From Bacteroidales bacterium (lineage in GTDB: Bacteria; Bacteroidota; Bacteroidia; Bacteroidales; P3), in contig JBAYYI010000003.1 of assembly GCA_041673165.1 (NCBI GenBank), positions 2,090-66,089 of the forward strand: a stretch of DNA of 64,000 nucleotides. The letters are read 5' to 3'. Position numbers and translations under genes: made by a program. The stretch's first letter is position 1; each line of letters opens with the position of its first letter. The notes below the pieces were generated by a model. It was not told where the DNA came from, ran no database searches, and worked only from the letters and a program-made list of their open reading frames with translations. Positions 7,638 through 64,000 of this stretch are shown one piece after another.

Positions 7638-9947
7638 ATGAGAAAGATACTCTTTATCATAGCCTTACTAATGAGCTTTTACTCTTATGCTGCACCAATT
7701 GCCGATAAGGATGACCACGCCAGTATAGAAGGACACGTCTTTGATGCAAGAACAGAAGAGCCAATAGCCTACGCTTCTGTTGGCATAAAAGGAACCTCAA
7801 TTGGTACCGTTACCGATATGGAAGGGGATTTCGTTATAAGAAAGCTTAAACCTGGCAAATACACCTTAGTTATAACTTATGTAGGGTATGAGAAATATGA
7901 AAAAGATATAGTAGTGATTGCTGGCAAAGCAACTCACGCCCACATCGAACTAAAAGAATCTAGGGTTATGATGGATGAGGTTGTTATCTCGGCAAGCAGG
8001 GTAGAAACCAGTAGGAAGGAAGCACCAGTTATAGTAAATGTTATGTCTGAGAAGACCTTCCAACAAACAAATGCACAAGACCTTTCCCAAGCCCTACCTT
8101 TCCAATCAGGAGTAAGAGTTGAATATAGCTGTCAAAACTGCGGTTTCTCCCAGGTAAGAATTAATGGTATGGATGGTCCTTATTCTCAAATCCTTATTGA
8201 CTCCAAACCAATAATGTCTGCCCTTGGTAGTGTTTATGGCCTTGAACAAATGCCTGTTAATATGGTTGAAAGAATTGAAGTAATTAAAGGAGCAGGTTCA
8301 GCACTCTATGGCTCAAATGCAATTGCAGGAACAATAAACATAATAACCAAAGAACCCCTCACCCCTTCCTATTCAATAGGCACAGACCTTCAAGCAGTAG
8401 GAATGAAGTCTTATGCACAAAACTTTAATGCAAACGCAGTTGTTATTGGTAAAAACAATAAATCAGGAGCCTCATTCTACCAAACATTTAGAAAGAAAAC
8501 CCCTTATGATCATGACAATGATGGGTTTTCTGAAATAGGTAAATTAGATGCTTTCTCATTTGGAACAAGATCTTTCTATAAACTATCCAATACCCAAAAG
8601 ATAACCTTGGAATACCACACAATGCAAGAAACACGTCGTGGAGGAGATGCCTTTGAACAACCACCACACCTATCAGGCATAACAGAGATGACAGACCATA
8701 AAATCCATTCAGGAGGACTAAACTACGACTATATTAGTCTTGATGGAGACAGCAAATACTCAATCTATAGTTCAGCACAATATATTGACAGAGAATCATA
8801 TTTTGGATCACATAAAGACCCAAGAGCATACGGAAGAAGCAATGATGTCACTTTTCTATTAGGAACACAAGGTTATAATAAAATAGAGAAACTACTATTC
8901 CTTCCAGCAAGTTTAGTTTATGGAGTAGAATATAGTGGGAATAAGTTAGAGGACAGTGTAGTTTGTTATAAGACAGGAACAAAACAATCAACCAATGTTA
9001 TTGGAGCATTTGCACAAGCAGAATGGACAGCCAAATACTTTAGATTTGTTGTAGGAGCACGTCTTGACAAACACAACCTAATTAAATCACCAATATTCTC
9101 ACCAAGGCTAAACATAATGTACACTCCAAGCGAAGACCTACAAGTTAGAGCATCTTATGGTTCAGGCTACAGAGCACCACAATCCTATGACGAAGACCTT
9201 CACGCAACACAACTTGGAGGACAAACAGTTAGAACCACACTTGACCCAAACCTAAGACCAGAATATTCACACAGCTTTAGCCTATCCTCCGACTACTATG
9301 TACAGCTAAGCGATGACTACCAAGCAAACTTCTTATTAGAAGGCTTCTACACCAGCCTAACAGATATCTTTGCCCTAAAGGTAGTTGACTCAGACCCAGG
9401 CTCAGATTCCAACACCCTAACCCAACTCCGCTATAACGCATCAGGAGCCAAAATAGGAGGAGTAAGCATAACAGCAAAACTTTCATACCAAGCCAAATAC
9501 ACCCTAACACTTGGCTATACCTACCAACAAAGCAAGTATAACGATAAAGAGAAATGGTCAGAAGAAACATCAGTAGTGGCAACAAGGACTATGCTTAGAA
9601 CCCCAGACAACTACGCCTATGCAACCCTAAGCCTAACACCAATAAAGCCAATGAACATATCCCTATCAGGAACCTATACCGGTCAAATGATAGTCCCACA
9701 TTACGCTGGCTACATACCAACAGACAAATTAGAAACAACACCCCATTTCTTTGACCTAAATCTTGTAGCATCCTATGACTTCAAACTAAAAGAAGACCTA
9801 ATGTTCCAAATTGGCGGAGGCATAAAAAACATATTCAACTCATACCAAAGAGACTTCGACCAAACCATAGACAGAGATGCAAGTTATATCTACGGCCCAA
9901 TGCTCCCTCGCACAATCTACATATCCTTAAAACTATATAGCAAATAA
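7638..9947 (+). CDS. TonB-dependent outer-membrane receptor with N-terminal carboxypeptidase-regulatory-like domain
   Basis: 769 aa. Signal peptide, then a CarbopepD_reg-like segment (GHVFDARTEEPIAYASVGIKGTSIGTVTDMEGDF), a plug (RIEVIKGAGSALYGSNAIAGTINIITK) and a beta-barrel with a C-terminal aromatic-rich strand. Confidence 0.85.
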   Translation: MRKILFIIALLMSFYSYAAPIADKDDHASIEGHVFDARTEEPIAYASVGIKGTSIGTVTDMEGDFVIRKLKPGKYTLVITYVGYEKYEKDIVVIAGKATHAHIELKESRVMMDEVVISASRVETSRKEAPVIVNVMSEKTFQQTNAQDLSQALPFQSGVRVEYSCQNCGFSQVRINGMDGPYSQILIDSKPIMSALGSVYGLEQMPVNMVERIEVIKGAGSALYGSNAIAGTINIITKEPLTPSYSIGTDLQAVGMKSYAQNFNANAVVIGKNNKSGASFYQTFRKKTPYDHDNDGFSEIGKLDAFSFGTRSFYKLSNTQKITLEYHTMQETRRGGDAFEQPPHLSGITEMTDHKIHSGGLNYDYISLDGDSKYSIYSSAQYIDRESYFGSHKDPRAYGRSNDVTFLLGTQGYNKIEKLLFLPASLVYGVEYSGNKLEDSVVCYKTGTKQSTNVIGAFAQAEWTAKYFRFVVGARLDKHNLIKSPIFSPRLNIMYTPSEDLQVRASYGSGYRAPQSYDEDLHATQLGGQTVRTTLDPNLRPEYSHSFSLSSDYYVQLSDDYQANFLLEGFYTSLTDIFALKVVDSDPGSDSNTLTQLRYNASGAKIGGVSITAKLSYQAKYTLTLGYTYQQSKYNDKEKWSEETSVVATRTMLRTPDNYAYATLSLTPIKPMNISLSGTYTGQMIVPHYAGYIPTDKLETTPHFFDLNLVASYDFKLKEDLMFQIGGGIKNIFNSYQRDFDQTIDRDASYIYGPMLPRTIYISLKLYSK

Positions 9948-9986
9948 AAAGAGAGGATAATCCTATAATTATAAGAACAAGACTGT

Positions 9987-10019
9987 AGAGACGCGATTTA
10001 TCGCGTCTCTTTCTATTTT
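9987..10019 (+). terminator. Rho-independent terminator after the TonB-dependent receptor gene
   Basis: AGAGACGCGA (9987-9996), loop TTTA, then TCGCGTCTCT (10001-10010). This is a perfect 10-bp GC-rich stem followed by TTCTATTTT. Confidence 0.8.
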
Positions 10020-10050
10020 CAAAAAATCAAAATGCATATCCACCAAATTA

Positions 10051-10082
10051 ATACGCTGAAAGGATTTGCTGAATCAAAGGAA
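10051..10082 (+). repeat. Dispersed 31-nt intergenic core element, copy 1
   Basis: ATACGCTGAAAGGATTTGCTGAATCAAAGGAA. The shared consensus with the copies at 27058, 36065 and 52296 is CGCTGAAAGrATTTnnTGAATCAAAG. Confidence 0.8.
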
Positions 10083-10151
10083 TAAAAAATTAAAACGCCG
10101 TAATAATTTTCTAAAACAAAGAAAGGATTTCCTAAAATAGCGTTTCATTTC

Positions 10152-10238
10152 AGTAAGGTGCCACCTTACACATAGTAACCCGCCACCTTACTCGAGTAAC
10201 CTGCCACCTTACTATAAGTAACCAGGCACCTTACTCAA
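10152..10238 (+). repeat. Four tandem 21/22-bp units with core GTAAnnnGCCACCTTAC
   Basis: GTAA begins at 10153, 10175, 10196 and 10218. The first unit, GTAAGGTG-C-CACCTTAC, is a perfect palindrome. Confidence 0.85.
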
Positions 10239-10264
10239 TTAATCCTTAGTTTTAAGAAACTAAA

Positions 10265-10300
10265 CCTTTGATTTGCAATATTATTACTTGATATTTCAAC
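10265..10300 (+). repeat. 36-bp conserved box, copy 1
   Basis: CCTTTGATTTGCAATATTATTACTTGATATTTCAAC. It matches 60568-60603 at 32 of 36 positions. Confidence 0.8.
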
Positions 10301-10372
10301 TCTCATTATCTATCATATTCAATTTCTTGCTAATTCAAGCCTTAAACCTATAAGAAATCCAAAACAATTTCC

Positions 10373-10380
10373 TATCTTTG
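10373..10380 (+). promoter_or_regulatory. -7 box TATCTTTG (MutS-related gene)
   Basis: CCTATCTTTGAAG, 55 nt upstream of the ATG at 10436. Confidence 0.5.
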
Positions 10381-10435
10381 AAGCGTGAAAGATTCGACGA
10401 CTAAGGTTGAATTAGTTACTTGAAGTAAAAGAATT

Positions 10436-12025
10436 ATGAATAGTCTTATTACATATATAAAGGGGTTATTTAGAAAAGAGAAAGAAGAAATTGAATCTCA
10501 GGATATTGATATTTCGGATTTATCTTTGTTTTATGAGCTTAAGAATGATAAGGAGTTTAAGGAGGCAAATAAGCAAGTTGTTCTTGATTTGGATTTGAAT
10601 GATGTCTTCTATAAGGTTGATAGGGCAAATTCTATTATAGGTAAACAGTATCTTTATAATCATATAATAAGTCAAAAAGTAAGTAAAAAAGATATTGATA
10701 TTATTGAAAAGAATGTTGATTATCTAATAGCAAGTGAAAAGAAAAAAAATGCCTTAGAAAAGATATTACAAAAGAGAGAATCTACTAAGCTATTACAGTT
10801 ACCGCATTTATTCATAGGCTCTGCATTTCCTTTGGACAAGTATATAAAGCTTTATTACCTACTCTCTTTCTCAGCCGTTTTATCACTTATATTATCGTTT
10901 TTCAACCCTTCATTTCTCTTATTGTTTATATTTATTGCAATAACAAATACTGCAATTCACTATTATAATAAAAGGAAACTATTCGTATTTCTCGACTCCA
11001 TATCTCAGTTAGAAACCTTATATAATATATCTCTTAAGATAGAAAAAACAGCTATAAAGCTAATAGAACAAGACGATACAAGAGAGAGCATTAGGGCATT
11101 ATCAAAAATAAGACATTGGTTAAGACCAATGAGCATAGGGAATGTTAATGAAACAAACGCAAATGAACTAATGGCTGTTTTTTTGGCCCCATTTGAACTA
11201 TTAAAAGGATTCTTCCTTATAGAGTTAATCGCAATGCACAAAGTCTTAACTGGCATTGAAACACAAAAAGAACATATATCTATATTATATAAATCAATTG
11301 GAAAGAAAGACCTCTATTTATCTATTTTGAAATTAAGAGAGCAAATGCCTTACTTCTGTAAACCAAAGTCTACAATGGATAATAAAACATTAGTTTGTGA
11401 GGCTGTTATCCACCCTTTGGTTGAAGATTGCATACCTAATAGCATAAGCCTAAACCAACAAAGCCTAATTATTACAGGCTCTAATATGTCAGGTAAGACA
11501 ACATTTCTTAGGACAATTGCAATAAATAATATACTTGGAAACACCTTAAACACATGTTTTGCTAAGAAATTTGAGGTCTCAAGAATGCAGACCCTAACTT
11601 CCATACGAGTAAAAGATGACCTTCTTTCTTCAAAAAGCTTTTTCTTTGAAGAGGTTTCTCTAATAAAAACTCTAATAGATGCCTGTTCAAAAGAGGAGAG
11701 ATATCTTTTTATTATCGATGAGCTATTCAAAGGAACCAATACAAGAGAAAGAATAGCAGCATCGAAATCTATCCTCCATTACTTAAATAAAACACACCAT
11801 ATTATACTATTTTCTACCCACGATTTAGAGCTTATAGAACTGCTTGACGATGATTTTGAGAGAGGATATTTCACAGAGAGTGTAGATAAAGGGGAGATAT
11901 CATTTAACTACACCCTCAACATAGGCAAGAGCTACGACACCAATGCAATAAAGATATTGGAACTAAACAACTACCCACAAGAGATAATAGATGACGCGTA
12001 TAGGAATATAAAGGAAATGGAATAA
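10436..12025 (+). CDS. MutS-related ATPase (MutS domain V only) with N-terminal membrane segments
   Basis: 529 aa. The C-terminal part carries ITGSNMSGKTTFLRT (Walker A), SFFFEEV, LFIIDELFKGTN (Walker B) and STHDLEL. Residues about 140-175 form two hydrophobic helices. No mismatch-binding or Smr domain recognised. Confidence 0.75.
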   Translation: MNSLITYIKGLFRKEKEEIESQDIDISDLSLFYELKNDKEFKEANKQVVLDLDLNDVFYKVDRANSIIGKQYLYNHIISQKVSKKDIDIIEKNVDYLIASEKKKNALEKILQKRESTKLLQLPHLFIGSAFPLDKYIKLYYLLSFSAVLSLILSFFNPSFLLLFIFIAITNTAIHYYNKRKLFVFLDSISQLETLYNISLKIEKTAIKLIEQDDTRESIRALSKIRHWLRPMSIGNVNETNANELMAVFLAPFELLKGFFLIELIAMHKVLTGIETQKEHISILYKSIGKKDLYLSILKLREQMPYFCKPKSTMDNKTLVCEAVIHPLVEDCIPNSISLNQQSLIITGSNMSGKTTFLRTIAINNILGNTLNTCFAKKFEVSRMQTLTSIRVKDDLLSSKSFFFEEVSLIKTLIDACSKEERYLFIIDELFKGTNTRERIAASKSILHYLNKTHHIILFSTHDLELIELLDDDFERGYFTESVDKGEISFNYTLNIGKSYDTNAIKILELNNYPQEIIDDAYRNIKEME

Positions 12026-19961: not shown

Positions 19962-20404
19962 CAATAAAATAATATTAATTCCTCTTAAAACTACTTTTAA
20001 TTGCCTTTGAGTATGCGTATTAAAGTTAAAAAACGAGTCGTTATATTATCTTATTTTATTGATTGATTGCAAAGTAAATAGATAAATTCCCTATATCCAT
20101 TAATAATATTGAAATAGTAATAATATATCCATAAGACAAGACTATAAACAATAAGAATATCGAACTTCAAATATTTTTTTAATAAATCAAGGGGCAGAGG
20201 TTGGCACTAAGCTAACTTGTCTTAGTGCAACTCTGAACCTATTAAAGAACATTTACTGAGTGTCATCATTTCACTCTACTAAGGGGGTGTGAAACGGTGA
20301 AACAAGATTCATTTTCAATAGATTGCAAAAAGTAAGTGAAACAAACGTCAAAAAGAGGCGAAAATGGGCAAAAAAATCTGTAGAATTAAAAAGCATTTAC
20401 AGTG

Positions 20405-20530
20405 TCAAAGAATCGACTTAATGAATCAAAGAAAGGATTTCCTTAATCAAAGAAATAAAAAATTAGATCAAAGAACTAATCTCGTGAATCAAAGATCTAA
20501 TTTCTTGAATCAAAGACTTAGAAAACTAAA
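20405..20530 (+). repeat. Six tandem units at an exact 21-bp step with conserved word TCAAAGA
   Basis: TCAAAG starts at 20405, 20426, 20447, 20468, 20489 and 20510. The array abuts the stop of the NlpC/P60 gene (20535). Confidence 0.9.
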
Positions 20531-20534
20531 ACCC

Positions 20535-21317
20535 CTATAAGTATCTTTTGATTTTATTTAGTTGGTGGCTGTAAGTGGAAGAATGTTGAGGTAGTATTCC
20601 TTTATTATCAATTTGGTCTATTCTTACTTGACCAGATGCATGAATGATTAGATTGGATCCTATATATATTCCTACATGAGTGATTTTACCTTCTGTGTTA
20701 TTAAAAAAACATAAGTCTCCTTTTTCGGCTTCTTCGAGTGTTTTTACTTCTTCTCCTTGGGTTATTTGGTCTTTGGCGTCTCTTAGTAGATTTACTCCAA
20801 TTTGTTTATAACACATTTGAGTAAAGCCTGAACAATCTATTCCATAAAGGCTTTTCCCTCCCCATAAATAAGGAGCAGAAACGTATTTTAGGGCTATAGT
20901 AATAAGAGAAAGTATATTGGTTTTTGTTTTATTTATAGATTTAGGTTCTAATATTTGAAAAATTATATCTCCTAATTGGAATTTCTCTCCTATAAGCTGG
21001 GAACCTAAATATATAGGATAAATTATTCTCTGCTTTGTCTTTTGATTGGTTTGACTGATATAAGTTTGATCTAGGGTAACTATTTGTTTGGATGTTGAAG
21101 TGTAGGCATTGTAGTCTGTCTGACTTATTTCGATGGTTTGCTTTTGGTCAATCCAACCCACATACTGGTCATCAAAGTTTTCGATTAGGATTTTGTCTTC
21201 TATCTGCTCAAGAATCTTAAAGCAGTCGCCAAAGATTAGTTGGCTTATCATTTCACTTCTCTCGCTATTTTCTTTCCTAATAGGAACAATTGCTATGTGG
21301 CAAAATCCGTATCGCAT
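20535..21317 (-). CDS. NlpC/P60 (C40) family peptidoglycan peptidase with N-terminal SH3-like region
   Basis: 260 aa. YLWGGKSLYGIDCSGFTQMCY (catalytic Cys), ITHVGIYIG and IHASG (His). Confidence 0.8.
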   Translation of the reverse strand: MRYGFCHIAIVPIRKENSERSEMISQLIFGDCFKILEQIEDKILIENFDDQYVGWIDQKQTIEISQTDYNAYTSTSKQIVTLDQTYISQTNQKTKQRIIYPIYLGSQLIGEKFQLGDIIFQILEPKSINKTKTNILSLITIALKYVSAPYLWGGKSLYGIDCSGFTQMCYKQIGVNLLRDAKDQITQGEEVKTLEEAEKGDLCFFNNTEGKITHVGIYIGSNLIIHASGQVRIDQIDNKGILPQHSSTYSHQLNKIKRYL

Positions 21318-25785: not shown

Positions 25786-27006
25786 ATGGATTTCAAACCA
25801 ATTCTACAGAATATCGGACTCCACTCAGAGGGATTATTAATCTTCCTAAACACCATAATAAGTCTTTTTCTTATTGGTTTATTTGGCTGGATAGCATATA
25901 TGATAGCAAGAAAATACCTTGCACATCTAATTATTAAAATAGCAGGACATACCTCAACCGATTGGGATAACCTCCTTTTTGATAAGAAATTCTTCCGCCG
26001 TCTTGGATATCTAATTTCCGCCATAGTAATTCAAATAGGGCTAACCTCACTCGACTGGCAGTATATGGACATTATCCACAAATTCATATCAGCCTGGATA
26101 ACCTTTGCATCTGTCTTGCTTATTGGTTCTATTCTTGATGGGGTAAATAGGATATGGGAAAGCTACCCAATATCGAAAGAAAAACCACTAAAAATCTTTA
26201 CGCAAGTCTTGATGATATTTATATGGTGCGTTGCCTTAATAGTAGTAATCAGCATATTCACAGGAAAATCCCTACTCATATTACTTGGAGGACTAACAGC
26301 ATTTGCAGCAGTTCTAATCTTAGTTTTTCAAGACTCAATACTTGGCTTTGTGGCAGGCATTCAGCTAAGTGCAAACAATATGGTAAAGATAGGGGACTGG
26401 ATAGTTATGCAAAATAGGGGGGTTGATGGAGATGTTCTGGAAATCAACCTAACCACTGTTAAGGTTCAAAACTGGGACAAAACCATTACCACAATTCCAA
26501 CTCATAAATTAGTATCTGAATCTTTCACCAACTGGAGAGGGATGGAGGAGTCAGAAGGTAGGAGAATAAAACGTTCTATCAATATAGATATAAACACAAT
26601 CCATTACTTGACAGAACAGGAGATAGAAACTCTTAGAAAGTCTGAACTACTTAGAGACTACCTTGAAGAAAAGCTTAGATTCATTGAAGAGCATAATGCC
26701 TCACATAATACTTTACTTGACAAACGAAGACTAACAAATATAGGCACATTTAGAGAGTATCTTGATTCTTGGCTAAACACACGTCCTGATTTAAATCTTG
26801 AGATGACACATATGGTAAGGCAACTTCAACCAAGTGTAACAGGTGTGCCGATTGAAATTTATTGTTTCTCAGCAAAGCAAAGCTGGATAGAATATGAAAA
26901 AGTACAGTCTGACATCTTTGACCACGTCTTTGCAGTAATGGAATTATTCCACCTCAGAGCCTTCCAATATTCTTCAGGAACAGTTGCCGCATTAGACAAT
27001 AATTAA
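25786..27006 (+). CDS. Mechanosensitive ion channel family protein (MscS-like)
   Basis: 406 aa. N-terminal TM helices followed by the MscS beta-domain pattern KIGDWIVMQNRGVDGDVLEINLTTVKVQNWDKTITTIPTHKL. Confidence 0.8.
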   Translation: MDFKPILQNIGLHSEGLLIFLNTIISLFLIGLFGWIAYMIARKYLAHLIIKIAGHTSTDWDNLLFDKKFFRRLGYLISAIVIQIGLTSLDWQYMDIIHKFISAWITFASVLLIGSILDGVNRIWESYPISKEKPLKIFTQVLMIFIWCVALIVVISIFTGKSLLILLGGLTAFAAVLILVFQDSILGFVAGIQLSANNMVKIGDWIVMQNRGVDGDVLEINLTTVKVQNWDKTITTIPTHKLVSESFTNWRGMEESEGRRIKRSINIDINTIHYLTEQEIETLRKSELLRDYLEEKLRFIEEHNASHNTLLDKRRLTNIGTFREYLDSWLNTRPDLNLEMTHMVRQLQPSVTGVPIEIYCFSAKQSWIEYEKVQSDIFDHVFAVMELFHLRAFQYSSGTVAALDNN

Positions 27007-27010
27007 AAAA

Positions 27011-27090
27011 ATGAATCACTGAAAGGATTTTTTAGATCTTTGATCTAATTTTTTATTCCTTTGATTCAATAAATTCTTTCAGCGATTCAT
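27011..27090. repeat. 80-bp palindromic element containing an inverted copy of the 31-nt core
   Basis: ATGAATCACTGAAAGGATTT (27011-27030) versus the reverse complement of AAATTCTTTCAGCGATTCAT (27071-27090): 18 of 20 match. The centre holds AGATCTTTGATCT. The core copy lies on the minus strand at 27058-27089. Confidence 0.8.
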
Positions 27091-27158
27091 TTTTCTCTAT
27101 CCTAATACTGCGATTTAATCAAAGAAATTAGTAATTTTGTTGATTAATATGTTGTTTT

Positions 27159-36040: not shown

Positions 36041-36119
36041 ACCAATCAAAGAAAGAGAAAAATGAAACGCTGAAAGAATTTACTGAATCAAAGAAAGAAT
36101 TTTTTAAAGTGGCGTTTCA
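36041..36119 (+). repeat. Core element copy (36065-36096) inside an 8-bp stem / 41-nt loop structure
   Basis: AAACGCTGAAAGAATTTACTGAATCAAAGAAA. TGAAACGC (36063-36070) pairs with GCGTTTCA (36112-36119). TCAAAGA occurs at 36046 and 36088, which is 42 bp apart. Confidence 0.8.
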
Positions 36120-51591: not shown

Positions 51592-52268
51592 GAAAAATAA
51601 TATCATATAAGTTCAATCACTTAATAACTTTAACCTCTTTATTCCTATTGTTTTTCAGCATAAACCTAATGGCTCAGCCTGTTAAAAGCACAGTTGAGAC
51701 CTCCAATCAAGCCTGGAAATATGGAATAAGAGCTGGAGCAAATTATGACGGAACAAATATTCGTCAAGGTTCTGAATATAAAATAGGATGGAAGGCAGGA
51801 TTTGTTGCAGAGAAGAGATTAGTATATAATATGTATTTCCAACCCTCAATATCATTTCTAAACAAAGGATATCAATCTGAAATGCCTTTCTCCCAAAGGG
51901 ATGATATCAATGCATATTTAATTGAAGGAGTTGCAGGAATGTTAATGAAATTTGGAGATGAGAGGGCTGGAAGAGGTTTAATCATTTCAATTGCACCATA
52001 TTTTACTTATGGAATTGGTGGAAACTCAATATTTGAAGATTTAAGAGACCCATTAGATACTAATTACTTTGGTAAGGTAACTGAAAAAACCTTTTCGGAT
52101 AATAGGTTAAATGCCTTTGATATTGGATTTCAATTAGGTCTTGGTTATGATATTAATCATAGATGGGAATTAGGAGGAGTTTATATTTTTGGACTTAATA
52201 AAATGAGGAATAATTCAAATGCTCTTTGGACAGGATTTCAAGTCCATCTAAGCTATTTCTTTTATTAG
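51588..52268 (+). CDS. Outer-membrane beta-barrel protein (porin/PorT-like family)
   Basis: 226 aa. Signal peptide, alternating beta-strand pattern and an aromatic C-terminus (LSYFFY). The start overlaps the upstream stop. Confidence 0.55.
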   Translation: MRKIISYKFNHLITLTSLFLLFFSINLMAQPVKSTVETSNQAWKYGIRAGANYDGTNIRQGSEYKIGWKAGFVAEKRLVYNMYFQPSISFLNKGYQSEMPFSQRDDINAYLIEGVAGMLMKFGDERAGRGLIISIAPYFTYGIGGNSIFEDLRDPLDTNYFGKVTEKTFSDNRLNAFDIGFQLGLGYDINHRWELGGVYIFGLNKMRNNSNALWTGFQVHLSYFFY

Positions 52269-52273
52269 AAAGC

Positions 52274-52347
52274 CAAACGCTGAAACAGTAAATTAATACG
52301 CTGAAAGAATTTCTTGAATCAAAGATCTAATTTTTTAAATCAAAGAA
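52274..52347 (+). repeat. Core element copy (52296-52326) plus partial copy, phased at 21 bp
   Basis: ATACGCTGAAAGAATTTCTTGAATCAAAGATC. CGCTGAAA occurs at 52278 and 52299. TCAAAGA occurs at 52319 and 52340. Confidence 0.8.
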
Positions 52348-52351
52348 AGGA

Positions 52352-54556
52352 TTATACTGGAATTGAAATCTTTACCGTTGTTCCTTTATTTAATTCAGAT
52401 TCTAAAGAGATTTTTCCTCCTATAAGTTCAATATATGCCTTAGCAATTGGTAAGCCCAATCCATTACCACCATAAGATCTTGTCAATTCAGAATCAACTT
52501 GGCGAAATGGGAAGAAAACAACCCTTTTCATCTCTTCTGGAATTCCAATACCTTTATCAATTACGCTGATTTCAGCATTTGAATTATCAATCATACATTT
52601 AACTAAGACATCTCCTTTTTGAGTAAATTTGATAGAATTATCTATTATATAATTTACTACTTTTCCTATTTTTTCCTCATCTGAATTAAGAATAAACTCA
52701 TCACAAGAGTGATTTATCTCGCAATTAATGATTATTCCCTTTTCTTTTGCGACAAAGTTTTGTTCATAAACAATGTTTTTTATAAGCGATAATAGGTCAA
52801 ATGGTTTTATTTGAGGTACTATTTGGTTGGAGTAAATTTTAGAAATCTCAATTATGTTATCAATGATAATAATTAATTTTTCTGTATTGTTAGCTATTTG
52901 TGATGAGAACTCTTTTAGATCTTCTAAGCTATTATCCTTTTGTGAGATTAGTTTTGTAAATCCTATTATTGAATTAAGAGGTGTTCTTACTTCATGTGAC
53001 ATATTACGTAAGAATGAAGATTTTAATTTGTCACTTTCTTCGGCTCTTTCTTTTGCTGCAATTAATTCTTTTTCTGAATTGAGTTCTTCTGTTATATCTC
53101 TACCAACTCCAATAACCTTTAGAGGCTTTCCTTCACTATTTCTTATTAGTGTTCCCTGCGATTTGATATGAATAATACGTCCATCTTTGTGAATAACTCG
53201 ATATTCTGTATCATATTCTTTTTCCCCTTTTATGGCTAATTGGTTAGTTTCCTTGAATTTTTCTTTGTCATCAGGATGGATTAAGTCGAATAAAGAATTC
53301 AAATTATTCTTTTCTGAATTTTCTATTCCGAAAACTTCGCATACTCTATTACCCCATGTCAGATTACCACTTTCTATGTCCAATTCCCAAACGGCTAATT
53401 TAGCAGATTGAGCTGCTAATTGAAGTCCAGAGTCTTTTTCTATTAAATCATTCTGTATTTTTTTGTTTAATTCTATTTCACAACTAAGTGAATTATTGGT
53501 ATTTATTAGTTCCTCAGTCCTTTCAAATACTCGCCTTTCAAGTTCTTCTTCTACCTTTTTTCGTCTTGAAATTTCCTTTTGTAATTGTATATATTGCCCC
53601 TCAAGCCTTCTTTCTATTTCTTTCTGTTTAGTGCGATCAATTCCAAAACAGATTGTTTTTATTAGCTTCCCCTCTGGAGAGTAAATTCCATTATTTGTCC
53701 ATGCAATCCATAACTTCTCTCCATTTTTCTTTACATTTTCGTTCTCGCTACTATAATAATTTTCAGGATTTTTTGAAACAATGCTTAATTTATTCTTTAG
53801 GTCATAACCAAATGAGTCAAACTCATTGACAATTGTGCCAACAATATTCTTGCCAACAATTTCTTCATCCTTAAAATGAAATAGTCTTTTCCCAAATGCA
53901 TTGATAAATAATATAATTCCCTCAGGGTCTAATTCTAATACAATGCTTGTTGACTGATCGATTAATGTGCGATATTTTATTTGGTTCTCAACTAACTTAT
54001 TTTCTATATCTCTTCGTTCCGATATTTCTTTCTCTAAGCTCTTATTTAAATTATATAGCTGCTCTGTTCTCTCAATAATTTTTTGTTCAAGATTACTTTT
54101 ATATTCATTTGTATCTATATCCAATCGTGCCCTTTGGCTTATATCAAGGATATTCCCAAGTAAAAGTTTAGTATTCCCAAATTTTACAATGCTTGCAAAT
54201 ATCATTAAATAAACAATTTCTCCATTTTTCTTTCTCCCACGGATTTCATACTTAATAGGAGTAAAATCACTTGAAAGTCTAAGATTCTTTTTTTCTTTTA
54301 ATAATGCTTGGTCTTCTGCTATTACTATCTCTTCAGGACTAATACCAATAAGTTCGTCTTTTTCGTATCCAAATATTTCATTAAATGCTTGGTTAGAATA
54401 CTGTAACTTATTTTCATTTAGAATAAATACACCAGTAAGAGAATTCTCACAAAAGGCATGAAATAATATATTATCATCCTTTTCAAACTCTTCAACTGAA
54501 ATAGTTTTGATGGGATTATCTATATTATCTTGAAAAGTGGGTTTGTTATTCTTCAT
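52352..54556 (-). CDS. Multi-PAS sensor histidine kinase (cytoplasmic, no receiver domain)
   Basis: 734 aa. Three PAS-like modules separated by coiled-coil linkers, an H-box (FLRNMSHEVRTPLNSIIGF), an N-box and G-boxes (DKGIGIP, GGNGLGLPIAKAY). Confidence 0.8.
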   Translation of the reverse strand: MKNNKPTFQDNIDNPIKTISVEEFEKDDNILFHAFCENSLTGVFILNENKLQYSNQAFNEIFGYEKDELIGISPEEIVIAEDQALLKEKKNLRLSSDFTPIKYEIRGRKKNGEIVYLMIFASIVKFGNTKLLLGNILDISQRARLDIDTNEYKSNLEQKIIERTEQLYNLNKSLEKEISERRDIENKLVENQIKYRTLIDQSTSIVLELDPEGIILFINAFGKRLFHFKDEEIVGKNIVGTIVNEFDSFGYDLKNKLSIVSKNPENYYSSENENVKKNGEKLWIAWTNNGIYSPEGKLIKTICFGIDRTKQKEIERRLEGQYIQLQKEISRRKKVEEELERRVFERTEELINTNNSLSCEIELNKKIQNDLIEKDSGLQLAAQSAKLAVWELDIESGNLTWGNRVCEVFGIENSEKNNLNSLFDLIHPDDKEKFKETNQLAIKGEKEYDTEYRVIHKDGRIIHIKSQGTLIRNSEGKPLKVIGVGRDITEELNSEKELIAAKERAEESDKLKSSFLRNMSHEVRTPLNSIIGFTKLISQKDNSLEDLKEFSSQIANNTEKLIIIIDNIIEISKIYSNQIVPQIKPFDLLSLIKNIVYEQNFVAKEKGIIINCEINHSCDEFILNSDEEKIGKVVNYIIDNSIKFTQKGDVLVKCMIDNSNAEISVIDKGIGIPEEMKRVVFFPFRQVDSELTRSYGGNGLGLPIAKAYIELIGGKISLESELNKGTTVKISIPV

Positions 54557-55522: not shown

Positions 55523-58414
55523 TTAGTTATTGTGTTCAGCCTTTGGCATGGTGAAAATAAAATCACTTCCTTTGCCTAATTCTGATTCTACCCAAATAAG
55601 TTCTTCATGTTTTTGTATAAGTTCTTTAACAATCGATATCCCTAATCCAGTGCCTTTTTCCCCTTGGGTTCCTACTTTTGTTTCGTTAGAATCGCTAATA
55701 AATAGTTGATTTGCATATTCCTGATCCATTCCAACTCCGTTATCAGAGATGGTTATTTGAATCTTATTGTCTTTTTCCTTTGATTCAACCTTGATTTCAC
55801 CATTTTTGTTGGTGAACTTGATTGAATTACTTATTAGGTTTCTCAATATTGTTTTCAATATATTGATATCTGCTTCAATATATAAGTTGTCTGGAATTGA
55901 ACAAGAAAGGGTTATATTTTTAACTTGAGCATGTGTGTTTAAATTCTTAAATGTATGTAAAACAACTGCTTTAAGTTCAAACACTTTTTTGTCAACATCC
56001 ATTATACCTGACCTAACTCTAAGCCAAACAAGTATTTCTTCCATTAGTTTGTATCCCTTTTCAGAACTTTCGTTTATGATACCTGTAAATTCTTTTATAT
56101 TCTCCTTATCTATTTCCTCTAAGTTATCTAAAATATATTGAGAGAATCCTATTATTGATGTGAAAGGATTTTTTAAATCATGAGCAAGTATCCCAATAAA
56201 CTTGTCCTTATCGAAGTTAATCTTTTGAAGATCTTTGGTAAAGGCAATGATTTTCTCTTCTTTTTCTTTTCTTTCAGATATATCAAAGAAAGTCACAACT
56301 GCACCGATGGCTTCTCCTTGGTGTATTTGAGGGTATGAGAAATACTCTGCAGGGAAATATGAACCATCTTTTCTCCAAAACACCTCATCAGCCGAATGCA
56401 TGCCTATATTGTTTGTAAAAGCTTTGTAAATAATGCAGTCATGTATGTTCATAGGATTTCCATCTATATCTGAATGATGAATTAGGTTATGTATGTTTTG
56501 ACCTAGTAAATCCTCTTCTTTTGAATAGCCAAGAATATTTAGGCAAGCTTTATTAGCAAATGTGCAATTCCCATTATTATCTATTCCATATATACCTTCT
56601 GCGGTTGAGTTTAATAGTAGGCTTATCTTTTCTTCTTTTTCTTTTCTTTCAGTTATATCAATGAAGGTTAGAACAGCTCCAATAACTTCTTCTTTATGTA
56701 TTTGAGGGTGAGAAAAGAGCTCAACTGGAATTTTTGAACCATCTTTTTTCCAAAACACCTCATCAGACGAATGCATACCTTTACCGTTCTTAAAAGCATT
56801 TTCAATAGTGCAATCTTGCGTTTTGATAGGTTTGCCTTCAATATCTGAATGATGAATTAGGTTATGCATGTTTTGACCTAATAATTCTTCTTCTTTTGAA
56901 TAGCCAAGTATATTTAGGCAAGCTTGGTTAACAAATGTGCAATTCCCATTATTATCTAATCCATAAATACCTTCAGCAGTAGAGTTTAATATTAGGTTTA
57001 TCTTTTCTTCTTTTTCTCTAATAATATCTTTTTCCTTCAATATCTCTGTAATATCTCTGCTTATACTAATAATTCCGATAACTTTCCTATTATCGTCAAA
57101 CAAAGGAATTTTATTAGTCTGTTCTTGTCTCGTTTCTCCATTAACATCACAGAACAAATTAATCTTCCCTTTTAGTTGCTTGCCTGTTTGAAAAACATTA
57201 TCATCTTCTTCTTGATACTCTTTTGCTCTATCCTCAGGGACAAGATCTCCATAGCTTTTACCAATAATATCTTTCCAACTATTATAGCCAGTAAGTGTTG
57301 CAAGACTTTGGCTACAAAAAACTATTTTCCCATCTTCATTCTTGAAGAGTACATAATCAGTTATATGTTCCAAAAAAGTTTCAAAGTAACGGTTGAATAA
57401 TAAATACTCTTGTTCTTGTTCTTTCTCATGAGTTAAATCTTGAAGAGTAAGGAAAACTCCATAGCCTTCAACTTTTAGCGGTTCTGAACTTAGTCCAATC
57501 CATTTGATTTGGTTTTCTTGTTGTAATCCAACTTCAAAATTAGAAATAGAAACTCCTTTTTCCAATGTTTTTATACCCGGACATTCATCATCAGGAACAG
57601 GGCTTAGGTCAGGATAAATAAAGCTAAAGTTTTTTGAATGCAAATTAACACTTAGTAAATCTTCTTTTGAAGCTCCTAAAATATTTTCTGTAGCTCTATT
57701 GCAGTCAATAATATTACCCTCCTTGTCAGTAAGAATAACCCCCTCATGAAGAGTTTGAAAAATTGATTTGTATTTATGTTCACTTTCCTCAACCTTAACA
57801 AAAACATCCTTATAAGCAGAGTTTAATGTGTTGAGTTCAATATTATTCTTATCAAGTTCTTTTACCAATTTAATAAAAGCTTTATTGAAATAACTTATTG
57901 AACTAATAAGGATTATTGCTGTAATAAATATAGTAAATAATGCATATATCCAGCTTATAAAATTAGCGTTAAAAGCATTAAAGTCTATTTCTCTAACAAA
58001 TAGCTTGTTTAAAATAGAATATTCAATTACAATATAGCCTAAGAGGGCAATAATAGAATAGATTATTCCTAATTTTTTACCGTATAAAACAGTAATTATT
58101 GCAATACCAATAAGACATAAGAAGTGACCACCAGAAAATCCAAAGTATAAATTCCCTACAAATCCTGAAATAAGGAATAATGAACCGACAATATGAGATT
58201 TTAGAATAATGGATAGTTTGTTTCTTAAAAGGAAAATAACCGAAATGAGTATAAACATGCTACAAAACAAAACATAATTAATATCAAATCCATATTCAAT
58301 AATTTGAATTAAAGAGAAAGCAATTGCAGGAAGGGCTAAAATTAATAAACTAAGAATAGAATATTTGAATAGTTTCTCTCTAGCTGAATTCATTTCCGTT
58401 TTTAAGTCTTTCAT
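55523..58414 (-). CDS. Membrane-bound multi-PAS sensor histidine kinase
   Basis: The track ORF starts at 58504, which would overlap the tRNA-Cys terminator. I moved the start to the ATG at 58414 (MKDLKTEMNSAREK), 48 nt downstream of a TATTTTTG -7 box. It has about 6 TM helices, 4-5 PAS modules, an H-box (ILAHDLKNPFTSIIGF) and an HATPase domain (DNGVGM, GTGLGISIVKEL). Confidence 0.8.
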   Translation of the reverse strand: MKDLKTEMNSAREKLFKYSILSLLILALPAIAFSLIQIIEYGFDINYVLFCSMFILISVIFLLRNKLSIILKSHIVGSLFLISGFVGNLYFGFSGGHFLCLIGIAIITVLYGKKLGIIYSIIALLGYIVIEYSILNKLFVREIDFNAFNANFISWIYALFTIFITAIILISSISYFNKAFIKLVKELDKNNIELNTLNSAYKDVFVKVEESEHKYKSIFQTLHEGVILTDKEGNIIDCNRATENILGASKEDLLSVNLHSKNFSFIYPDLSPVPDDECPGIKTLEKGVSISNFEVGLQQENQIKWIGLSSEPLKVEGYGVFLTLQDLTHEKEQEQEYLLFNRYFETFLEHITDYVLFKNEDGKIVFCSQSLATLTGYNSWKDIIGKSYGDLVPEDRAKEYQEEDDNVFQTGKQLKGKINLFCDVNGETRQEQTNKIPLFDDNRKVIGIISISRDITEILKEKDIIREKEEKINLILNSTAEGIYGLDNNGNCTFVNQACLNILGYSKEEELLGQNMHNLIHHSDIEGKPIKTQDCTIENAFKNGKGMHSSDEVFWKKDGSKIPVELFSHPQIHKEEVIGAVLTFIDITERKEKEEKISLLLNSTAEGIYGIDNNGNCTFANKACLNILGYSKEEDLLGQNIHNLIHHSDIDGNPMNIHDCIIYKAFTNNIGMHSADEVFWRKDGSYFPAEYFSYPQIHQGEAIGAVVTFFDISERKEKEEKIIAFTKDLQKINFDKDKFIGILAHDLKNPFTSIIGFSQYILDNLEEIDKENIKEFTGIINESSEKGYKLMEEILVWLRVRSGIMDVDKKVFELKAVVLHTFKNLNTHAQVKNITLSCSIPDNLYIEADINILKTILRNLISNSIKFTNKNGEIKVESKEKDNKIQITISDNGVGMDQEYANQLFISDSNETKVGTQGEKGTGLGISIVKELIQKHEELIWVESELGKGSDFIFTMPKAEHNN

Positions 58415-58461
58415 AAAAAGGAGTTTTAAAATGATAAGGTTAATATATTGATAACAATACG

Positions 58462-58469
58462 CAAAAATA
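58462..58469 (-). promoter_or_regulatory. -7 box TATTTTTG (membrane PAS kinase)
   Basis: Plus-strand CAAAAATA, 48 nt upstream of the ATG at 58414 and downstream of the tRNA terminator. Confidence 0.45.
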
Positions 58470-58492
58470 CAATAAATGTTATAATATAAAAA

Positions 58493-58518
58493 CAAAAAAG
58501 CCACCTTGTGAGGTGGCT
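58493..58518 (-). terminator. Rho-independent terminator downstream of tRNA-Cys
   Basis: On the minus strand AGCCACC-TCACAA-GGTGGCT is followed by TTTTTT (plus-strand AAAAAA at 58493-58498). Confidence 0.7.
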
Positions 58519-60470: not shown

Positions 60471-60567
60471 TGAAAATTAAGCTCACAATCCATAAAAAGG
60501 CAATAAATAATTATTAAATAGAAAATCTTTCGCATGGAAAACAAAGAAAGGAAGTCGCAACCTGACA

Positions 60568-60603
60568 CCTTTGATTTACAATTTTATTACTTGACATTCC
60601 AAC
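60568..60603 (+). repeat. 36-bp conserved box, copy 2
   Basis: CCTTTGATTTACAATTTTATTACTTGACATTCCAAC. It matches 10265-10300 at 32 of 36 positions. Confidence 0.8.
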
Positions 60604-60709
60604 TATAATATAAAAGCATAAGTAATTTGCTGGATTATAAGCTGGATTTGTTCTTGGTTCAGTAAGTTCCTAAGTAAGGAATCCAATAAAAGGGAAATGT
60701 TTTGTTTTT

Positions 60710-60919: not shown

Positions 60920-61245
60920 TAAGGCTTTAAATTGATTTAGATAAGGTATCTCTCAATTTTTATAAGCTCATTTTGAATCTGCATAAGCTCATTTTGAATC
61001 TTTACAAGGTAATTGCATACAATAACCGCCATTTTTTGCCCCAAAAACCGCCGGTTTTTGACTGAAAAAAGACTTTTTTTGATTAGAAACCGCCGGTTTT
61101 TGGGGTAAAACTCGGCAGTTTTTGGGTCTCAACTCCTTATGAAAATCTAAAAAGAGCTTATAAGGATTTAAAATGAGCTTATGTAGATTGAAAAAAAGCT
61201 TGTTACGAATTAGAAATAGCTTATATAGATTCAAAAATTACATAT
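60920..61245. repeat. Imperfect palindrome of about 300 bp built from phased 21-bp modules (dyad axis at 61072)
   Basis: ATAAGCTCATTTTGAATCT occurs exactly at 60962-60980 and 60983-61001. Five AAACCGCCGGTTTTTG-type units start at 61024, 61046, 61067, 61088 and 61109. Inverted copies of the first word lie at 61143-61161, 61164-61182 and 61185-61203. 61039-61057 mirrors 61087-61105 with one mismatch. Confidence 0.9.
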
Positions 61246-61274
61246 AATAACCCAATCAGATAACGTTATAGTAA

Positions 61275-61325
61275 AATAAGATAGTATAATAGTAATAATA
61301 ATAGAATAAGATAGCATAATAGTAA
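61275..61325 (+). repeat. AT-rich direct repeat AATAAGATAG(T/C)ATAATAGTAA x2, 30 bp apart
   Basis: 61275-61295 and 61305-61325 are identical at 20 of 21 positions. They lie 50-100 nt upstream of the HU-like gene. Confidence 0.8.
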
Positions 61326-61373
61326 AATAAGAAAACTTAATCATTCGAAATAATCATTTAATAATCAAATAAT

Positions 61374-61799
61374 ATGCCAATAAAATATTTTAGATTAAAG
61401 AAGAAAATTACAATAAACTCAATTCCGGTGGATAGGTATATTGCTAATATTCAAATCGAAACCAATGCTGACCTTGAAATGATTTCGGAGATAATTGAGA
61501 AGCAAAGTACTATGAGTAGGGGTGATATTATGGGAGTGCTTGCTCAACTTGAACCTGCAATTTGGTTTATGCTGGAAAATGGACATCCTGTAACGCTTGG
61601 AGTTTTAGGGACTTTCTATCCTGCAATTGATGCATTGTCGATGGATAGCCCAGAGAAAGTTACTACTAGGACTATTAAAAGATTTAGAACAATTTTCAAG
61701 CCCTCAAAATATCTAAAGAAAAGGTTTAAAGATGTACAATTTGTTCTTGGCGACAACAAGGTCAGGGAAGTAAGATACAAGAAAAAACCTCTTGAATAG
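61374..61799 (+). CDS. HU-family (Bacteroidota histone-like) DNA-binding protein
   Basis: 141 aa. The pattern EMISEIIEKQSTMSRGDIMGVLAQLEPAIWFMLENGHPVTLGVLGTFYP....KRFRTIFKPSK resembles the Bacteroidota-specific HU-like family often found in accessory islands. Confidence 0.6.
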   Translation: MPIKYFRLKKKITINSIPVDRYIANIQIETNADLEMISEIIEKQSTMSRGDIMGVLAQLEPAIWFMLENGHPVTLGVLGTFYPAIDALSMDSPEKVTTRTIKRFRTIFKPSKYLKKRFKDVQFVLGDNKVREVRYKKKPLE

Positions 61800-61883
61800 T
61801 TACAGAATTACCAGAATAGTATAAAATTCAGTCCTCTAACTTCATATTAAGCAGGAATCAAGTGAGGAAATTATTTTGATTTG

Positions 61884-61907
61884 TCATTTATTTTGTTTTC
61901 CTTTGCA
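61884..61907 (+). repeat. 24-nt exact repeat TCATTTATTTTGTTTTCCTTTGCA, copy 2 (upstream of the KAP NTPase)
   Basis: Identical to 60710-60733. It ends 58 nt before the KAP NTPase ATG. Confidence 0.85.
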
Positions 61908-61965
61908 CAGTCATAAGACTTTAATTTTGATTTAATGACACTATATTTTAACCTTTAATGATTGT

Positions 61966-64000
61966 TATGAAAGAAAATCATCCTATAAATTTATTAGAAG
62001 GAAATCCTATAACAAAAATAGAAGAAGATGTTTTTGGAAGAGGAGAGATTGTAAAAAACCTAACTGATTACATTCATTACAGAAAAGATTTATATAATCC
62101 AAAGTGTTTTACTATCGGCTTGTATGGTAAATGGGGAGAAGGGAAAACATCTATTTTGAATATGGTAGAGAGTGAATTATTAAGCAAGAAAGATAACATT
62201 GTTCTAGTTCGATATAATCCTTGGTTTCTAAAAGATCAAGAATCAGTACTACTTGATTTTTTTAATTCAATTTGTGCAGAAAGTTTTGATAAAAAAGTTA
62301 TCAATTTAATTAAAAAATATGGAAGTGTCATTTCATTAGGAACTAAAGGCATTCTAGGACTCTCTGGTGTACCATTAATAGGGGAATTTTTAGACTATAT
62401 AATTAAAGCAATAAAGGGAATTGACAACAACAAACCTATTTCAAAACAAAAAGATGAGGTAAATGAAGCTATTAAAAATTCAGGTAAACATTTAGTTGTT
62501 TTTGTAGATGATTTAGATAGATTAGATTGTGAAGAAATTCATGCTGTTCTAAAATTAATAAGACAAAATACAGACTTTGATAATACAACATATATTCTAT
62601 CTATGGATTATCATATAGTCACTCAGTCAATAAACTCATATTTCTCAGATAAGAAAGAAAACTCAGGGAAAAGCTTCCTAGACAAGATTATACAATTTCC
62701 ATTACATCTACCAACTATACAAAAAATGCATCTTAATAAATTTGCAGAGATTCATATTGATGAATTACTAAGTAGGATTTGGAAAAATCCAAAAGAAGAA
62801 ATCAATATAAAAGATCTAAAATATAATTTAGAAACTTATGTAAATCCATTATTTTTAACTCCGCGAGATATAATACAATATGTAAATATTCTCAATTATA
62901 TTGTTCCTACATTATATAAGGAAGTTGATTTATCTGACTTGTTTTTATTGGAAGCATTAAAGAAATTTAGTTATGATTCTTATGATAAAATAAGGAATCG
63001 TAGGCATATTTTTATATCTAATCCGTTTTTTACCGATTATTACTTAGCAGAGAAATACAAAAAAGATGAAGAAAAAGAAGACATCAGAAAAAAGAACATA
63101 GAATCAATTCATATAAATAATACTTATAATAAGGCTATATATATAAATAAGATTATTGATATATTATTAAATGACTATTTGAACATTGGCGGACTTAAGA
63201 ACCGCAAGAAATTATGTGACCCTAATTTCTTTGATAAGTATTTTCTTTATACTACACCAGATAATCAAATTCCAGAAAAAGAAATTAATACGCTAACAGA
63301 ACTTATAGGAACAGCTGAAATCAATGAAATTGTATTAAAACTTAATGAGTATAACGAGCAATATGGATTTGATGAAATTAGAAGAACTATTGATACAATT
63401 GTTAGATATAGAGATATAGAGAATTATGAGAAATTAATTTCAAATATAACAATTGCATTTAGTTTAATGGATAATGCAATAAAAGATAGAATTTATTTTT
63501 GCTCAATTGTTGATAGAAACATATTTGGAAATTTACTTGAAGAAGTAGATGATGCAGTGAAGCTTAATTATAGATTGATTTTCGAGATAGCTAATAGTAT
63601 AGTTGATAAAGCAGATATTAATTTTTCTATGGAACTTGCTTTGCAAATGGTTAATAATTACGCATATGTTTGTAAAAATGATTATGATGAATTGATTAGA
63701 AAAATTATTAATAAATACATCTCATTAAATGGCGAAATTAGTTTATTTAATATTGAGAGTCCAAGAACCAAAGTATTTATCTTAAAATATTGGAATTTCG
63801 CTATGCCAGAAAACTTTTTAGAAGCTAAAAAGAATGTTATTGAAGATGATAAATTAGATATAATAGGACTTATTAGCTCCTTTATGCAAGAAGAAAAACA
63901 AGACGGCTATTTAAAACTTATTGAGTTGTTTGATAAAGATAAGTTGAAAGAGAAATTAGACAAGAAAATCTCTTTGGTTCAGGAATATGACAAACAATAT
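61966..64000 (+). CDS. KAP-family P-loop NTPase, 5' part (ORF still open at the window end)
   Basis: Absent from the ORF track because no stop is reached. ATG at 61966. It reads MKENHPINLLEGNPITKIEEDVFGRGEIVKNL...CFTIGLYGKWGEGKTSILN (Walker A), NPWFL, a hydrophobic insert (GILGLSGVPLIGEFL), and HLVVFVDDLDRLDCEEIHAVLKLIR (Walker B, DDLDR). This is the KAP NTPase signature. Confidence 0.75.

Follow-up and report, generated by a model that had tools for sequence, protein, structure and literature searches.

A modular palindromic repeat in intergenic DNA of uncultured Bacteroidales, probably one copy of a previously undescribed family

Neisseria carries Correia (NEMIS) elements and Streptococcus pneumoniae carries BOX elements, in both cases short foldback repeats that do not code for protein, have inverted ends and can provide neighbouring genes with promoters or terminators. 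BOX elements follow the modular scheme boxA-(boxB)n-boxC, in which the count of middle modules varies. Repetitive extragenic palindromic (REP) units are defined as sequences of 20-40 nt with a stem-loop of their own and a GTAG or CGTC tag (PMC3733652). The closest described analogue of the element treated here is BrickBuilt of Porphyromonas gingivalis, which is both a MITE (for miniature inverted-repeat transposable element) and a minisatellite (Klein et al. 2015, PMC4596501). BrickBuilt is intergenic, has a leader and a tail, predicted long stem-loops and no Rfam match, varies in unit number and shows promoter activity, an idea that its authors name the 'putative mobile promoter'; target-site duplication and empty sites are evidence of its mobility. 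One copy, BrickBuilt_5, sits just downstream of the terminator of a gene, and BLAST matches were, according to the authors, confined to P. gingivalis and P. gulae (PMC4596501). Our subject is a non-coding element of about 355 bp (about 10045-10403) in a stretch of 64,000 nt (G+C about 33%) from the Bacteroidales contig JBAYYI010000003.1, hereafter called the window. It lies in a 488-nt gap (9948-10435) between the genes of a TonB-dependent receptor (7638-9947) and of a protein with MutS domain V (10436-12025), the MutS-related gene. Judged from sequence comparison, 10045-10403 is probably a single copy of a modular, palindromic, intergenic repeat family of uncultured Bacteroidales that was previously undescribed.

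The original prediction had proposed at this place a composite non-coding element in three layers, a 31-nt core (10051-10082), four operator-like words (10152-10238) and a 36-bp box (10265-10300). The composite nature was supported and all three layers are present, but they are not independent of each other: they belong to the left arm, the centre and the right arm of one family. We built hidden Markov models (HMMs) of this family only from copies in other genomes, with the window excluded, and then ran them on the window. The left arm (10045-10152, forward strand) consists of five tandem, A-rich 21-nt modules, here called A-type, in direct repeat and in a 21-nt register (HMM E=6e-25). The 31-nt core is real and corresponds to modules 1 and 2 of these five. 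The centre, or B array (10153-10234, forward strand), holds four 17-nt pseudo-palindromic units at 10153-10169, 10175-10191, 10196-10212 and 10218-10234, with the linkers ACATA, TCGA and TATAA. The right arm (10235-10300, reverse strand), also detected by HMM, is made of three inverted A-type modules, the reverse complement in the same 21-nt register, and covers the 36-bp box. It is followed by a tail (10301-10403, forward strand) common to long-form copies elsewhere, at whose end lie the promoter of the MutS-related gene and the region where its transcript starts. The model of right arm plus tail matched 10235-10403 with E=4e-33. In general terms, A-type bricks are A-rich 21-mers with ACGCTGAAAG or TCAAAG, the B-type brick is the 17-nt pseudo-palindrome GTAAnnTG-C-CAnnTTAC plus a 4-5-nt linker, and the full form runs from A-modules over four B units and inverted A-modules to a tail with a promoter box at its end.

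Both arms keep one 21-nt register and the right one is inverted, so that the four units are bracketed by inverted arrays of one module and the whole element becomes a long imperfect palindrome. This bears out the MITE-style bracketing suggested before. The element also resembles a MITE in being small (MITEs stay under about 600 bp), non-coding and present in many copies. The bracketing words, AATCAAAGG (10072-10080) and CCTTTGATT (10265-10273), are perfect 9-nt inverted copies and close the predicted single-strand fold of 10040-10305 (z -5.0). Two isolated copies of this word had been claimed in addition. The one at 7571 is unsupported because neither family HMM detects it, and we regard it as chance; the one near 10383 sits within the conserved tail common to copies elsewhere and is therefore family sequence, not a separate copy. 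A mini-ORF in the head module (ATG AAA CGC TGA) was dismissed, as its start codon varies across copies. The left boundary is marked by an intrinsic terminator at 9987-10010 (forward strand; 10-bp stem with 6 GC pairs, TTCTATTTTC tail), which serves the TonB-dependent receptor gene and lies outside the repeat. It is kept at L018 and L003, where L-numbers denote loci in related genomes, mainly metagenome-assembled genomes (MAGs).

Compared with BrickBuilt, the likeness extends to Bacteroidales hosts, tens of copies, invariably intergenic positions beside housekeeping genes, a leader and a tail that enclose tandem units of about 22-23 nt each, a unit number varying among orthologous loci, and promoter capacity at the ends. 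As with BrickBuilt_5, the window copy lies just after the terminator of the upstream gene. PgRS/MITE464 of P. gingivalis is an element similar to BrickBuilt in this comparison. The element is nevertheless not a BrickBuilt member. Its period is 21-22 nt (17-nt unit plus 4-5-nt linker) instead of 23 nt without spacers, it has 1-5 units against up to about 23, and its arms are tandem inverted 21-nt modules, whereas the leader and tail of BrickBuilt are non-repetitive. The IS5-like 12-nt terminal repeats of BrickBuilt (GAGACCTTTGCA/TGCAAAGGTCTC; the search covered GAGACCTTTGCA and two variants) were absent from 9948-10435 at up to two mismatches. As the 23-nt unit of BrickBuilt was published as a figure only, the two are set apart here by period, unit structure and terminal repeats.

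With REP sequences and bacterial interspersed mosaic elements (BIMEs) the family shares its intergenic position, a mosaic build in which short palindromic units are combined with other motifs, a 3'-end bias of its A-type core, hairpin potential and possible protein-binding sites. It differs from them in that the unit, GTAACCTG-C-CACCTTAC, has C/C mismatches, begins with GTAA, bears no GTAG or CGTC tag and cannot fold alone because its loop would be 1 nt; the units are, moreover, direct repeats and not alternating. A RAYT gene was not seen on inspection of the loci examined, which did not include an HMM scan. Correia and BOX elements, of unrelated sequence and with hosts in other phyla, have defined termini and target duplications (TA for Correia), and their middle modules are not known to be specially constrained 17-nt dyad sites. 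The original prediction had recognised no described repeat family, and we arrived at the same result. At the gathering score Rfam returned one tRNA for the window; with E up to 10 nothing credible appeared in 9900-10500, and twelve related loci gave two tRNAs and nothing else. A full-text literature search for the motif yielded only unrelated papers with human and plant primer matches. The family is a new one of a known kind, the bacterial interspersed mosaic repeat, with an unusually constrained 17-mer, and we think it likely that the element is best understood as a MITE-like, BIME-like and BrickBuilt-like lineage-specific mosaic repeat.

The distribution of copies supports this interpretation. 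Within the genome collection, the window comes nearest to uncultured Bacteroidales MAGs of digester and wastewater origin, with 93-95% nucleotide identity for Go_Prim_bin_146 and about 86-88% for STF2_138. Our 17-mer scan (GTAACCNGCCACCTTAC) covered one genome per species; all counts of loci and MAGs from it are lower bounds. Among the matches listed, tandem arrays of 2-5 units were present only in low-GC Bacteroidales MAGs, at no fewer than 40 loci in at least 10 MAGs, with at least 12 arrays in STF2_138 and at least 10 in Go_Prim_bin_146; matches listed from other taxa and phyla and from viral contigs were single units throughout. Viral carriage of arrays was rejected, the viral matches being single units in what reads as conserved phage coding sequence. 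Of the matches listed in low-GC Bacteroidales loci, all 88 units and all 19 cores lay outside open reading frames (ORFs), although intergenic DNA makes up just 13-15% of these loci; of the single units listed from other taxa, 19 of 63 did. The core is thus intergenic and also found beyond the window, an outcome which, like the lack of a decayed gene at this position in relatives, favours a genuine repeat family under the refuting conditions set in the original prediction. To the left of the arrays the same A-rich modules recur (ending in ...CAGCGTTTCATTTCA) and to the right the inverted ones (TCAAATAATCCTTTGTTTTAC TAAACTAAACCTTTGATTCAC ...). The modal array has four units with the linker order [5 nt]-TCGA-TAT(G/A)A, and the conservation of this order at many loci makes whole arrays look like copies of one master, not like independent local expansions.

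The neighbours of the arrays are unrelated, mostly housekeeping genes, and all types of intergenic region are represented, including those between convergent genes and divergent promoter regions. Oriented by the array, the left gene was on the plus strand at 15 loci and on the minus strand at 13, the right gene at 14 and 11, respectively. Across genomes copies clustered by locus with 90-94% identity, compared to 55-80% for paralogous arms. The right arm of the window copy was 94% identical to that of L018, and other orthologous pairs reached 93% and 91% (L023 and L102), 92% and 92% (L055 and L114), 94% (L076 and L098) and 90% (L061 and L121). This grouping by locus indicates that the insertions predate the splits of the sampled species and that the family is old; locus clustering gave no sign of a recent burst of copies. 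Orthologous arrays differed in unit number (4 vs 3, 4 vs 1), and synteny breaks at the array. The left arm of the window copy was 96% identical to that of L003 and the right arm only 67%; the right side of L003 instead matches L062 (87%) and leads to a gene other than the MutS-related one. In Go_Prim_bin_146 and AS08sgBPME_458 (L003 2408-2467; L062) the same left arm and array are followed by a different gene (MTKKEALKLFEERKVRTVWD...), which looks RhuM/Bro-N-like. In sum, the copies are scattered, confined to intergenic DNA, of an age that predates the divergence of the sampled species, and bound to no particular gene or orientation.

The units themselves were better conserved than linkers and arms. 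Between paralogues within STF2_138, identity was 95.7% for units and 64% for linkers; within Go_Prim_bin_146 it was 95.4% and 74%. Between the window clade and clades of the UBA4893/UBA5515 type, units were 91% identical and linkers 36%, about chance level, with 67% identity between the MutS-related proteins of the two clades. Conservation of units far above linkers points to a 17-mer that is read by something sequence-specific, and the 17-mer is probably a constrained recognition sequence of a putative trans-acting, sequence-specific protein. This protein could be a recombinase or transposase that spreads the family, or a DNA-binding protein of the host. The 21-22-bp period would put successive units on one helical face, about two turns per unit, with the recognising protein phased along it.

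As to the promoter, we defined the Bacteroidetes -7 box as an exact match to TAnnTTTG. Such a box occurs 24-120 nt upstream of 19 of the 24 ORFs of the window that have a free upstream region. A scan for sigma-70 promoters, a model unsuited to Bacteroidetes, gave matches at chance level and was discarded. The box TATCTTTG at 10373-10380 (forward strand), 63 nt upstream of the ATG at 10436, is the sole exact one in 9948-10435, and the right arm contains the degenerate -7-like words TAGTTTTA (10247) and TTGATTTG (10268). The -7 box with about 35 nt around it is common to tails upstream of unrelated genes (L055, L076, L098, L107, L114). The MutS-related gene would then be transcribed from a promoter at the right end of the repeat, with the array itself as a passenger.

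Several observations weigh against this picture of a mobile mosaic repeat that is read by a protein and brings a promoter. Mobility of the family is putative. A clean empty site was not found among orthologues of the MutS-related gene in genomes and metagenomes, nor among nitroreductase orthologues next to the 36-kb element: they carry the element or, where they do not, differ in synteny as well. Inspection by eye of the flanks of the A2 alignment revealed no convincing target-site duplication; a flanking TCA...TCA was seen in one related subfamily only. At the loci examined, no autonomous element and no transposase had these ends on either side, nor did a further array or an inverted partner, which would have pointed to a composite transposon, lie within 8 kb. 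The outer boundaries are fuzzy, the arms being inverted arrays of a 21-nt module from which no sharp terminal repeat can be defined. Gene conversion could account for part of the unit conservation, and the protein recognising the 17-mer is a putative one. Loci orthologous to that of the window but free of the repeat have TAGTTTTG-gtgaaagatt at the equivalent place; the presence of promoter and 'gtgaaagatt' start region in these genomes means that the promoter may be native to the MutS-related gene and not delivered by the element. Furthermore, the 64-kb window contains only one B array, and an exact-protein look-up of other contigs returned identical sequence, which left no strain-level variation to compare.

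The constraint on the 17-mer admits two further readings. In the first, GTAAnnTG-C-CAnnTTAC would be the dedicated site of a putative protein conserved in a family-level clade of Bacteroidales, and the phased arrays would form a nucleoprotein structure, that is, a functional system. We hold this to be unlikely. The reading protein might then be nucleoid-associated, or else a recombinase or transposase that has been domesticated, and four-site arrays with inverted A-tract modules might mark intergenic boundaries, seed inter-locus recombination, as the synteny breaks at the arrays would suggest, and carry portable promoters. The constrained 17-mer (GTAAnnTGCCAnnTTAC) could in any case serve as a specific bait in a search for its reading protein. 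In the second, the units would be host-selected sites of a global regulator or nucleoid-associated protein, either as a dispersed regulon or as a chromosome-organising array, and not part of a selfish repeat. Strong constraint relative to linkers and arms, within and between clades, would suit such a role, as would two-helical-turn phasing and the retention of copies at orthologous loci across species. We consider it quite unlikely nevertheless: the geometry relative to promoters is not fixed, the neighbouring genes have no common function, whole arrays share their linker order as copies of a master element do, and orthologues vary in unit number and lose synteny at the arrays.

Folding was examined with regard to a role at the RNA level. 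The four units, with GTAA at 10153, 10175, 10196 and 10218 as originally described, were recovered by Tandem Repeats Finder (period 22, 3.9 copies); the unit motif matched five times in the window compared to 0.12 in shuffles. Unit 1, GTAAGGTG-C-CACCTTAC, is the perfect palindrome it had been said to be. In general, the 17-nt unit has dyad symmetry at 12 of 17 positions and is broken at the CC...CC positions. Taken as a whole, the array of the window forms an imperfect palindrome of 82 nt, whose terminal stem is perfect over 11 bp (AGTAAGGTGCC/GGCACCTTACT). It folds with -28 kcal/mol and z-scores of -7.2 and -5.2, while the left arm shows no structure (fold z -0.06). Alignment of 21 arrays gave a global dyad with 68% of positions paired, against 18-36% with the partner columns slid. 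Many arrays, including that of the window, have GTAAGGTGCCACCTTAC as first unit and others have GTAACCTGGCAGGTTAC as last unit; either of them renders the outermost half-units complementary, which was the case in 10 of 21 arrays by these two routes (GC in 8, CG in 2). Likewise, 8-11-bp perfect inverted repeats were found at the ends of 10 of the 21. The inner CC/CC pairs were never complementary (0/21). Any tandem pseudo-palindrome gives inflated shuffle z-scores, and we therefore take the fold as a DNA-level dyad architecture and not as proof of RNA structure.

An RNA-level element like REP or Correia, whose transcribed hairpins would terminate transcription, stabilise 3' ends or meet RNase III, could draw on these strongly negative z-scores and on the position of the A-type core. 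The latter, unlike the B array, has a 3'-end bias: it came after the 3' end of a gene with the same direction in 14 of the 17 cases that could be determined, frequently 11-40 nt past the stop, and lay between convergent genes in 8 of the 15 cases in which both neighbours could be determined. In addition, two solo A-type elements (27005-27096, 36058-36119) have the look of a hairpin with a U-tract behind it. Bias and appearance together make a REP-like 3'-end role plausible for solo A-type elements. For the family as a whole such an explanation is very unlikely, considering the invariant inner C/C mismatches of the B array, the arrays in divergent promoter regions, the canonical terminator that already precedes the element of the window, the unstructured left arm and the lack of a match in Rfam, besides the inflation of z-scores just mentioned.

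A more local proposal, implied by the original prediction, was that the four words are an operator on which a dimeric transcription factor regulates the MutS-related gene. A perfect 17-bp palindrome in unit 1, one half-site retained in the other three, a 21-22-bp spacing that places sites on one helical face, and an array kept at the syntenic locus L018 are what one would expect of an operator. The same array and linker order, however, occur at the 40 or more loci described above, where the adjacent genes are unrelated, either orientation is found and some of the intergenic regions separate convergent genes, and the same left arm and array precede a different gene at L003 and L062. In UBA5515, UBA4893 and three metagenome contigs, the orthologous MutS-related genes have a promoter but lack the array. 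A locus-specific operator thus appears most improbable. At 135-235 nt upstream of the -7 box, and separated by a terminator from the gene upstream, the B array at the MutS-related locus would instead seem to be a passenger.

Two last explanations are barely conceivable. An invertible promoter switch, with the words at 10068-10080 and 10265-10276 as recombinase sites around a flippable segment, would fit 9-12-nt inverted repeats around about 185 bp in a Bacteroidales genome with promoter-like words nearby, but the orientation of the array to both flanking genes was the same in 7 of 7 orthologous pairs, an exact -7 box is absent between the inverted words and these words are plain modules of the arms. 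Direct repeats of 17 nt at about 22-bp spacing beside A+T-rich DNA might suggest an origin of the iteron type, the centromere of a plasmid or a decayed gene, but these readings are at odds with at least 12 arrays in one MAG, where one per replicon would be expected, with no adjacent rep or par gene, with a whole-element BLAST of plasmid and phage collections that gave no match, with the absence of any ORF of at least 50 aa in 9948-10435 and with relatives that show no coding remnant at this position. A CRISPR array, in which 23-47-nt repeats alternate with unique spacers of about 26-72 nt, was dismissed, given 17-nt repeats and 4-5-nt linkers, and so were resemblances to IHF, sigma-54 and dif/res sites, whose consensus positions do not fit.

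The mosaic repeat has further copies in the window. A degenerate 26-mer (CGCTGAAAGRATTTNNTGAATCAAAG) occurred exactly four times (10054 forward, 27059 reverse, 36068 forward, 52299 forward), with none expected from shuffles. The four cores reported before are accordingly there, all outside ORFs of at least 100 aa, but 'near-identical' goes too far as 4-6 of 32 positions differ; the exact 32-mer core and 36-mer box retrieved only themselves from the window at up to three mismatches. Three of these cores belong to solo A-type elements. The one at 27005-27096 folds back almost perfectly into a stem of about 21 bp, with runs of A and T at its sides (z -4.8 and -6.3 on the two strands). The one at 36058-36119 (forward strand) lies between convergent nitroreductase and ABC transporter genes, has inverted termini (TGAAACGC/GCGTTTCA; z -2.7) and is kept at L004/L144. 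The one at 52265-52353 (forward strand), between convergent genes for an outer-membrane beta-barrel protein and a PAS histidine kinase, is kept at L007. A fifth related array, absent from the original prediction, was found at 20402-20535 (forward strand). It consists of six 21-nt A-type units, each beginning with TCAAAGA, and abuts the stop codon of a gene on the reverse strand (20535-21317). A 58-aa ORF with LNQR heptads (20364-20540, forward strand) is the mere translation of this array and would be a false gene call; a coding origin of the 21-nt period was rejected, since TGA closes the frame in modules of the CGCTGA type elsewhere.

The 36-bp box (10265-10300) indeed recurs at 60568-60603 with 32 of 36 positions identical, or 34 of 38 with one more base on each side, and the window has no further copy at up to six mismatches. 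This recurrence is part of a partial copy at 60541-60605 (forward strand) with the A-module word AAAACAAAGAAAGGA, identical to 10116-10130, the degenerate unit GCAACCTGACACCTTTG, matching at 13 of 17 positions by eye, and right-arm modules; the family HMM matched 60567-60603 weakly (E=0.006). The 60.5-kb copy is a short derivative with one A-module word, one degenerate unit and a right arm.

Outside Proteobacteria and a few pathogens, catalogues of such repeat families are poor. In the present case a modular 'brick' repeat belongs to an entire clade of Bacteroidales from digesters and wastewater that is known from MAGs only; it fills intergenic regions, appears to supply promoters and coincides with synteny breakpoints. 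It probably also fragments short-read assemblies; the contig of L003, for example, ends about 230 nt beyond the array. Recognising the family guards against mis-annotation of its copies as gene-specific operators, small RNAs or small ORFs, for which the LNQR ORF is an example.

Some other features were noticed in passing. A third small module, the hairpin CTTGC-N3-4-GCAAGCGGNAANCCGA, is inserted in the left arm of the STF2_138 orthologue (L018 2604-2640), and two copies occur on the reverse strand of L098 in a leader of about 240 nt downstream of a composite copy; it represents a dispersed repeat in its own right or else an RNA motif. Upstream of rnfB, a 618-nt gap holds a conserved motif of about 110 nt at 20190-20300 (forward strand; GGCACTAAGC...CTTAGTGCAA..CTGAACCTATTAAA...TTTCACTnTACTAAGGGGG), which recurs at an unrelated locus in another MAG (L147 from about 1969) and had no Rfam match with E up to 1. 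This motif is possibly a small RNA not described before. Inside a 993-aa ORF (55523-58504, reverse strand), a 375-nt tandem duplication at 56256-57017 (2.0 copies, 84% identity) indicates an internal protein repeat. The region 61800-64000, about 2.2 kb with about 26% G+C and no complete ORF of at least 60 aa, may be a long ORF leaving the window or an A+T-rich non-coding island. Just before it, other tandem arrays with a period of 21-22 nt occupy 60960-61340 (ATAAGCTCATTTTGAATCTGC twice, CAAAAACCGCCGGTTTTTGACT about four times, CTTATAAAGATTTAAAAAGAG about five times), upstream of a 141-aa gene (61374-61799) that reads as HU-like. B arrays lie about 160 nt upstream of genes resembling this HU-like one at L037, L060 and L064.

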